From UHGV virus genome UHGV-0152227: a stretch of DNA of 43,955 nucleotides, one strand, 5' to 3'. This DNA comes from a virus. Numbering within the stretch: the stretch's first letter is position 1; every line of letters begins with the position of its first letter. Below, one piece after another: positions 36,719-37,303 of the stretch. Position numbers and translations under genes: made by a program. The notes beneath the pieces were generated by a model. The model was not told the origin of the DNA. It saw nothing but the letters and a program-made list of their open reading frames with translations, and made no database searches.

Positions 36719-37303
36719 ATGAAAAGTATCCAGGACGTCCGCAGGCAAAATCTCAACGACTTGATCGACCGTGAATTCAATGGTGTTCAGACGCGGATGG
36801 CAGAAAAACTTGGAACTCAGGCAAATCTGGTAAACCGCTGGGCTCTTGGCAAGAAGGTTATCGGCGACCAGGTTGCACGAAAAATTGAAGCTGCCGCCAA
36901 TAAACCCCGTAACTGGCTTGATATCGATCGCTCGCTTTCTCAGGAAGGTTTTCAGCCTGTCGGCCCGAGCGATATAGGTCAGCTGGCGGCTCACAACCTG
37001 GAACGCTGGATGAGCGAAAGCCGCGACCTTTCAACGCAGGGAAAACTACACCGCGCATCCGGCGTCGCCCAGGTGACAATCAGCCGCCTGTTAAACAATG
37101 AGGTCAGCGTTTCCATTTCCACCCTGGAGAATGTTGCATCCGCATTCGGGCGTCACGGCTATGAATTACTGATTCACCCGCACGACCCTGCGACCATCAA
37201 CTATGATCGCTCGCGCTACGCATTGTTACCCGAAACCGAGAAAGCAAAGATCGAAAGTTACATTGAATTTGTCATCAACCAGAACGAAAAAAACAAACAA
37301 TAA
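36719..37303 (+). CDS. Prophage repressor, tandem XRE-type HTH domains, no S24 peptidase domain
   Basis: Two HTH segments (QTRMAEKLGTQANLVNRWALGK; LHRASGVAQVTISRLLNNE); no Ser/Lys autopeptidase motifs; divergent from Cro-like gene. Confidence 0.7.
   Translation: MKSIQDVRRQNLNDLIDREFNGVQTRMAEKLGTQANLVNRWALGKKVIGDQVARKIEAAANKPRNWLDIDRSLSQEGFQPVGPSDIGQLAAHNLERWMSESRDLSTQGKLHRASGVAQVTISRLLNNEVSVSISTLENVASAFGRHGYELLIHPHDPATINYDRSRYALLPETEKAKIESYIEFVINQNEKNKQ

Follow-up and report, generated by a model that had tools for sequence, protein, structure and literature searches.

The open reading frame at positions 36719–37303 (plus strand) of a 43,955-nucleotide stretch of viral DNA (UHGV virus genome UHGV-0152227; hereafter, the window) is very probably rep, the immunity (lysogeny) repressor gene of a phiV10/epsilon15/SPC32H-like Uetakevirus prophage, its product most likely working as the Rep protein of phage SPC32H does. 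The chain contains two helix-turn-helix (HTH) domains. The reading heads on its palindromic operators are most likely two copies of the N-terminal domain, contributed by separate chains, and the second HTH-fold domain most likely makes the dimer. A correction follows for annotation: a repressor may carry a second HTH-fold domain that does not read DNA, and two HTH_3 matches should not be annotated, or read, as a "double DNA reader." The finding on rep itself is already known: an identical protein is annotated, its two HTH motifs are recorded in GenBank, and the structure and induction mechanism of the family have been published. What is left as new are two side observations, several Ant-domain proteins with control by RNA and Rep operators spread over the genome, which bear on how such Escherichia coli prophages decide to induce.

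What identifies the gene as a phage repressor? The reading frame begins with ATG, encodes 194 amino acids, and is the longest at its coordinates. The predicted protein is 100% identical to gp40 of phage phiV10 (YP_512295.1), which a GenBank note describes as a putative repressor with "two helix-turn-helix motifs (PF01381)," similar to epsilon15p38. Epsilon15 gp38, annotated as "repressor," is 42% identical over 98% of its length and differs in belonging to another immunity type and host; it was reportedly identified by genetic means as the major repressor by Kropinski et al. in 2007. A public protein search returned 86 clusters of the ~194-aa Rep from prophages of Escherichia, Citrobacter, Serratia, Raoultella, and other Enterobacterales, and the neighborhood of rep is 96–99% identical to that of Uetakevirus phages such as phiV10, TL-2011b, and vB_EcoP_ZX5. 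An NCBIfam search with Rep, the Cro-like protein, and the three Ant-type proteins discussed below gave no match above cut-off.

An earlier note on this DNA had described a repressor whose gene runs divergently from that of a Cro-like regulator, and the map agrees. On the minus strand, across a spacer of 154 bp from rep, lies a 76-aa reading frame (36334–36564) that is homologous to phiV10 gp41 and epsilon15 gp39 and matches PHROG 35 ("transcriptional repressor," E = 5.6e-13). The label "Cro-like" stands here for its position and this PHROG match; Pfam and PDB sequence searches with the 76-aa protein returned no match. An intrinsic terminator (37324–37343, plus strand) follows rep on its 3' side and is also annotated at the equivalent place in phiV10. 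That phage has the same neighbors—the divergent Cro-like gp41, the terminator after the repressor gene, and then the recombination operon—and differs in that the window prophage is ~4.8 kb longer, with an extra antirepressor module. A promoter consensus scan of positions 36664–36718 yielded no good candidate for rep.

Does the protein really contain two HTH domains? The earlier note had claimed two such segments in one chain, and three lines of evidence confirm them. Pfam HTH_3 (PF01381) matches Rep with 38.5 bits (cut-off 23) in two stretches, the best being residues 106–147; PHROG repressor families match residues 1–76 and 87–191 as separate segments; and an AlphaFold2 model (pLDDT 82.9), free of beta strands throughout, has two helical, HTH-like domains on either side of a disordered linker at residues 75–83. 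The model was built with a 56-sequence alignment; a single-sequence model (pLDDT 45) was unusable and was discarded. From these data we divide the chain into four parts. Residues 1–70 (36719–36928) form the N-terminal HTH domain, the putative reader of the operators by the role of its homologue in the literature. Its four modeled helices span residues 4–19, 24–31, 35–43, and 50–59, with helix 2 at 24–31 and helix 3 at 35–43 (ANLVNRWAL), and N36, R40, and W41 of helix 3 are invariant in the 56-member family. A match of residues 21–61 to a YdaS/Cro-type HTH (YdaS_toxin) stays below threshold, at 21 bits against a cut-off of 30. Residues 71–88 (36929–36982) are a variable, disordered linker with pLDDT <50 at 75–83; column entropy of the family alignment is highest here. 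Residues 89–152 (36983–37174) make up the second HTH-fold domain, which lies above the HTH_3 cut-off, is modeled with five helices (83–100, 107–114, 118–125, 133–142, and 147–151), and has in its helix 3 Arg123, which is invariant, and Gln118, which is nearly so. Residues 153–194 (37175–37300), with modeled helices at 164–168 and 172–193, are the C-terminal tail.

The two domains differ from one another. Net charge is +4 in the N-terminal domain and 0 in the second. A profile-profile alignment places the HTH cores (residues 23–47 and 106–130) in register with ~12% identity and a local E value of 0.0015. As a separate point, a recent tandem duplication was considered and rejected: BLASTP of the N-terminal half against the C-terminal half gave no alignment, and only the profile-profile comparison recovers the common core. 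By their sequences, the two domains would be very old relatives at best.

How does this protein relate to the repressor of known structure? Crystal structures of the SPC32H Rep and of its complex with the antirepressor Ant were reportedly described by Kim et al. in PNAS in 2016. PDB entry 5D4Z is residues 92–198 of this Salmonella phage Rep alone, and 5D50 is Rep with Ant. A PDB sequence search (phmmer) matched Rep residues 1–190 to the "Repressor" chain 5D50_A (E = 4e-42, 42% identity over the full length) and residues 89–190 to 5D4Z_A (E = 4e-20). With the Rep model as the Foldseek query, all 12 of the top 12 PDB matches were chains of 5D50 or 5D4Z, and the C-terminal half aligned to 5D4Z with TMt values of 0.70–0.74. 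The model and these structural matches give Rep the SPC32H layout: an HTH at the N terminus, then a flexible linker, an HTH-fold domain in the middle, and a short C-terminal tail. Conservation is uneven along the chain: the N-terminal domains are 54% identical, with six of nine helix 3 residues kept (including NLVNRW), and the second domains are 34% identical, with two of eight helix 3 residues kept.

What the homologue does is described, in later papers, in terms of the same parts. SPC32H Rep begins with a DNA-binding domain, continues with a middle dimerization domain (MDD), and ends with a C-terminal domain (CAD) that serves tetramer formation and Ant binding (PMC9986798). It binds DNA as a tetramer, the dimer form binding only weakly. 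The proposal is that each palindrome is occupied by a pair of DNA-binding domains belonging to different dimers of one tetramer; Ant, itself a tetramer, attaches to two Rep dimers and disrupts their tetramer (PMC9638917; PMC6868357). As judged by sequence, the second HTH of the rep product corresponds to the SPC32H MDD, and its tail would be the counterpart of the CAD rather than an S24 peptidase. All testable features of the SPC32H/epsilon15 Rep family are present in the window: full-length homology, layout, a cognate Ant, a LexA box, and the operator motif. From the homologue we infer that Rep forms tetramers, contacts DNA through its N-terminal domain only, and binds Ant. These domain roles are carried over at 42% overall identity (34% in the second domain), by way of papers that cite the SPC32H work.

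Where would such a repressor bind? The palindrome TTACC-N5-GGTAA occurs in nine exact copies in the window, against 0.01 expected, and allowing up to two mismatches gives 44 sites against 11.9 expected. Each of the nine exact operators is a perfect inverted repeat of one pentamer (TTACC/GGTAA). Three sites form an OR-like cluster between the cro-like gene and rep (36601–36663): one at 36601–36615 with one mismatch, one at 36632–36646 with two mismatches, and an exact one at 36649–36663. The consensus scan places a leftward promoter-like site (36618 to 36590) over the first of them. On the other side of rep is an OL/PL-like region (37361–37437, plus strand), in which two exact operators (37361–37375 and 37423–37437) have their centers 62 bp apart; the operator cited earlier, ATTACCTAATGGGTAAT, is located here at 37360–37376. 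Between these two operators, a promoter-like site (TTGACA-17-AATTAT, 37395–37423, plus strand) faces the operon of recombination genes. Rep would act at the divergent rep/cro promoters through three sites, at the PL-like promoter through two, and at several other promoters.

The same half-site motif recurs in the SPC32H genome, with 18 sites against 0.5 expected, and differs in its spacers, which are A/T-rich there and mixed in the window. Both phages also have pairs of operators 62 bp apart—37361/37423 and 34300/34362 in the window, 33604/33666 and 35972/36034 in SPC32H—an arrangement that fits a four-headed repressor bridging two sites. In a separate observation, Rep operators are scattered genome-wide in this prophage.

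Which domains read these operators? In the model we favor, the N-terminal HTH (~1–70) would read the half-site TTACC; the second HTH-fold domain (~89–152) would build the dimer instead of reading the operator; and the C-terminal tail (~153–194) would couple two dimers into a tetramer. Palindromic operators of 15–17 bp would then hold paired N-terminal domains from different chains. As the operator is a perfect inverted repeat, its readers should be two identical heads, not two domains that share ~12% identity. The half-site is common to this phage and SPC32H; between their Reps, helix 3 is kept in the N-terminal domain but not in the second, in line with an N-terminal reader.

It is improbable, in our estimation, that the N-terminal domains read the operators while the dimerized second HTH touches DNA as well, in a contact, whether non-specific or directed to another class of sites, that could add affinity or aid looping. 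XRE-type HTH domains, such as those of the 434 and P22 repressors, commonly dimerize while binding DNA, which counts for this possibility, as do the many scattered and paired operators, the near invariance of Q118 and invariance of R123, and the clear score of the second domain (38.5 bits against the HTH_3 cut-off of 23). This domain, however, has no net charge where the N-terminal domain has +4, and few of its helix 3 residues are kept between phages with a common half-site; a paper citing the crystal structures gives it a dimerization role only (PMC9986798).

The earlier note had instead proposed that a single chain fits the palindrome, the two HTH domains of one Rep sitting on both of its halves as a covalent "dimer." The palindromic operators on which that proposal drew are real, as the nine exact copies against 0.01 expected attest; what lacks support is the reading of one palindrome by the two HTHs of one chain, which we regard as very improbable. 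The two HTH-fold domains are indeed joined by a flexible linker of ~20 residues and, by simple geometry, this linker could span the ~10 bp between half-site centers. The half-sites, however, are exact inverted copies in 9/9 exact sites, whereas the domains are ~12% identical and their helix 3 sequences differ; in the second domain, moreover, helix 3 is not kept between two phages with a common half-site, and the homologue, as described in the literature, uses its second domain for dimerization and binds DNA as a tetramer through its N-terminal domains. Paired N-terminal domains from different chains thus remain the most likely readers.

How, then, is the repressor removed upon induction? The earlier note had claimed that the Ser/Lys peptidase domain is missing and had proposed a domain search as a check; this search found HTH_3 and, at E ≤ 1, no match to Peptidase_S24. 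No Ala-Gly or Cys-Gly cleavage site occurs in the Rep translation, which contains neither an AG dipeptide nor a cysteine. After the second domain only 42 residues remain, modeled by AlphaFold2 as helical or extended with no beta strand. Its sequence places Rep outside the LexA/lambda-CI-type autocleaving repressors, given that both the S24 domain and the linker cleavage site are absent.

The note had tied this absence to the presence of several antirepressors, and both the antirepressors and the connection find support in the window. The gene ant (7903–8160, plus strand) encodes an 85-aa antirepressor that is an orthologue of SPC32H Ant (86% identity; PDB 5D50_E, E = 4e-47). A perfect predicted LexA box, TACTGTATAAATATACAGTT (7864–7883), ends 20 bp 5' of the ant ATG, a position it also has in SPC32H, and upstream of the box is a Rep-operator-like site with one mismatch, TTACCTTTCAGGTGA (7812–7826); SPC32H has an exact operator at the equivalent place. 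The order of Rep operator, LexA box, and ant, adjoining the tailspike gene, is the same in SPC32H. A scan of the whole window for LexA boxes with up to one mismatch returned 11 sites against 14.8 expected, that is, no overall enrichment, and the perfect, AT-rich box at 7864–7883 is the sole credible one. In SPC32H (Kim & Ryu 2013, as reviewed in PMC7380047), Ant is made after LexA self-cleavage and blocks the repressor by protein–protein contact. By the same route, a Rep that cannot self-cleave would be removed when DNA damage inactivates the host LexA and the LexA-boxed ant is freed; Ant would bind the C-terminal domain of Rep, the tetramer would be broken, and the DNA would be released.

That Rep is instead inactivated by proteolysis, through a cryptic RecA-stimulated self-cleavage or an ImmA/IrrE-like partner, with the Ant-type proteins doing other jobs, is scarcely credible: XRE repressors without S24 can be cut by COG2856 metalloproteases, as DdrO is by IrrE (PMC6868357), and for the Bro-N and KilA-N proteins the name "antirepressor" comes from annotation, but S24 match, Ala-Gly, and Cys-Gly are all absent from Rep, its 42-residue tail is all-helical, the neighbors of rep are the Cro-like gene and small open reading frames with no protease, and an Ant 86% identical to the protein co-crystallized with Rep stands behind a LexA box. 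An ImmA/IrrE-type protease was considered as a partner in its own right and rejected, none being encoded adjacent to rep.

How does this immunity system compare with others? A close likeness is to the Rep-Ant pair of SPC32H/SPN1S, which has the same three-part Rep layout, the same half-site (TTACC-N5-GGTAA), the same gene order, and an orthologous Ant. The two differ in that Rep has diverged (42% identity) far more than Ant (86%). With lambda CI, P22 C2, and LexA, Rep shares its job and an XRE-type N-terminal HTH, and the map of the window resembles that of lambda: cro is divergent, there are several operators, and a second set of them lies at a PL-like promoter. Unlike these proteins, Rep has no S24 domain or cleavage site, would oligomerize through an HTH-fold domain and a short tail, and would be induced by an antirepressor rather than by RecA-stimulated cleavage.

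The repressors of Gifsy-1, Gifsy-3, and Fels-2 and the Tum system of coliphage 186 follow the same logic: the repressor cannot be cleaved, an antirepressor made under SOS control removes it, and one prophage may cross-talk with another (PMC7380047; PMC3121763). The likeness is one of logic, the Rep and Ant structures being specific to the epsilon15-like group. A further parallel is Rco of plasmid pLS20 with its Rap anti-repressor. As described in PMC9986798, Rco likewise has an N-terminal HTH, a C-terminal tetramerization domain ("TetDloop") reported to be structurally similar to the SPC32H Rep tail, and anti-repressor control. It differs in having no middle HTH-fold dimerization domain and in belonging to a Gram-positive conjugative plasmid.

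SPC32H is annotated with one Ant, whereas the window adds two Ant-domain fusion proteins. The second antirepressor-type protein (8476–9186, plus strand) joins a Bro-N domain (Pfam, 1e-19) to a C-terminal Ant-like domain; it matches PHROG Ant families, and its C terminus matches 5D50_E with E = 1.2e-13. The third (41902–42621, plus strand) joins an ORF6N (KilA-N-like) domain (Pfam, 2.8e-19) to a C-terminal Ant-like domain, matches PHROG 1760 (1e-91), and matches 5D50_E at its C terminus with E = 5e-14. In the window scan, no LexA box was seen before either fusion gene. Three differently controlled Ant-domain proteins—the LexA-boxed Ant and the Bro-N/Ant and ORF6N/Ant fusions—may converge on one Rep, a possibility that we put forward tentatively and consider rather unlikely. 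If all three bind the C-terminal domain of Rep, induction would respond jointly to SOS, RNA-based, and repressor-feedback signals. The pairing of a conserved Ant (86%) with a diverged Rep (42%) would permit cross-induction between Uetakevirus immunity types.

The regions upstream of the two fusion genes hold further elements. The Bro-N/Ant gene (8476–9186) is preceded by a Rep operator, an isrK-like RNA, and a C4-type antisense RNA, and the ORF6N/Ant gene (41902–42621) is preceded by an sRNA-Xcc1-like element.

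How widely are operators for Rep, the phiV10/epsilon15-type immunity repressor (36719-37303, plus strand), distributed along the genome? Sites of the Rep type (palindrome TTACC-N5-GGTAA) also occur outside the immunity region, at 8192, 9259, 26711, 29838/29856, 34300/34362, and 36264. Exact (mismatch-free) or near-exact copies lie upstream of the terminase small-subunit region, another precedes the small gene ahead of the portal gene, and one follows the Bro-N antirepressor gene. The 34300/34362 sites form a pair, spaced 62 bp apart, between a replication gene and a DUF1064 gene. 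In Salmonella phage SPC32H, the source of the crystallized Rep homolog, corresponding positions carry operators: 12-26 (ahead of terS), 3175-3189 (ahead of gene 004), and 35972/36034. Because the operators are scattered, and because those of SPC32H fall at equivalent places, the sequence suggests that many promoters, possibly including late ones, are under direct Rep action.

The leader of the Bro-N/Ant-C gene (8476-9186, plus strand), which encodes one of two larger antirepressor-type fusions, occupies 8164-8475 and, judged by its sequence elements, looks like an RNA control module of the P1 immI/Gifsy-1 isrK-anrP type, for which Gifsy-1 provides the precedent (PMC4825925). It opens with a promoter-like site (TTGCAA-17-TATATT; 8164-8192), directly followed by an exact Rep operator (8192-8206). 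Next come an isrK match with a terminator (8243-8319; Rfam, 63.5 bits) and then a C4 antisense RNA (8344-8427; Rfam, 66 bits). A segment of C4, CCACTTAG (8385-8392), is complementary to CTAAGTGG at both 8284-8291 and 8457-8464, the latter copy overlapping the Shine-Dalgarno sequence of the Bro-N/Ant-C gene.

A third antirepressor module (41640-42621) is inserted between the integrase and the methylase region. Ahead of its ORF6N/Ant-C gene (41902-42621, plus strand), the other large fusion, we found by eye a promoter-like TTGACA..TATATT (~41658-41686) and a hairpin with a T-run (~41727-41757), and Rfam reports an sRNA-Xcc1 (41771-41860; 64 bits). The ribosome-binding region of the gene (41887-41899) is complementary to segment 41748-41760. 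No intact copy of this module was found in the phage collection; at its N-terminal part it is similar to Stx-phage antirepressors, and at its C-terminal part to the Bro-N protein of Uetakevirus.

When this phage is compared with SPC32H, the 85-aa antirepressor Ant (7903-8160, plus strand) has diverged far less than the repressor it targets, with 86% identity for Ant and 42% for Rep (36719-37303). This difference could allow cross-induction across differing immunity types, as has been reported for Gifsy prophages.

Other genes were noted along the genome. Just 3' of the Bro-N antirepressor gene, a 190-aa ORF (9461-10033) gives a YafO-toxin-like hit in Pfam (25.8 bits against 25; E = 1.2e-05), and its annotation in TL-2011b is YafO family toxin. 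Near the terminase genes, a plus-strand tRNA gene (27048-27121; Rfam, 73 bits) lies within a minus-strand gene block, and the corresponding position in SPC32H carries a tRNA-Arg. Downstream of the Cro-like gene (36334-36564, minus strand), which is divergent from rep, a 70-aa ORF (35973-36185) encodes a phiV10 gp42 homolog of PHROG 1081 (unknown function). Its Cys/His pattern, CRHGH...CVEC, is suggestive of a small zinc-binding protein; in lambda, this position is occupied by cII.
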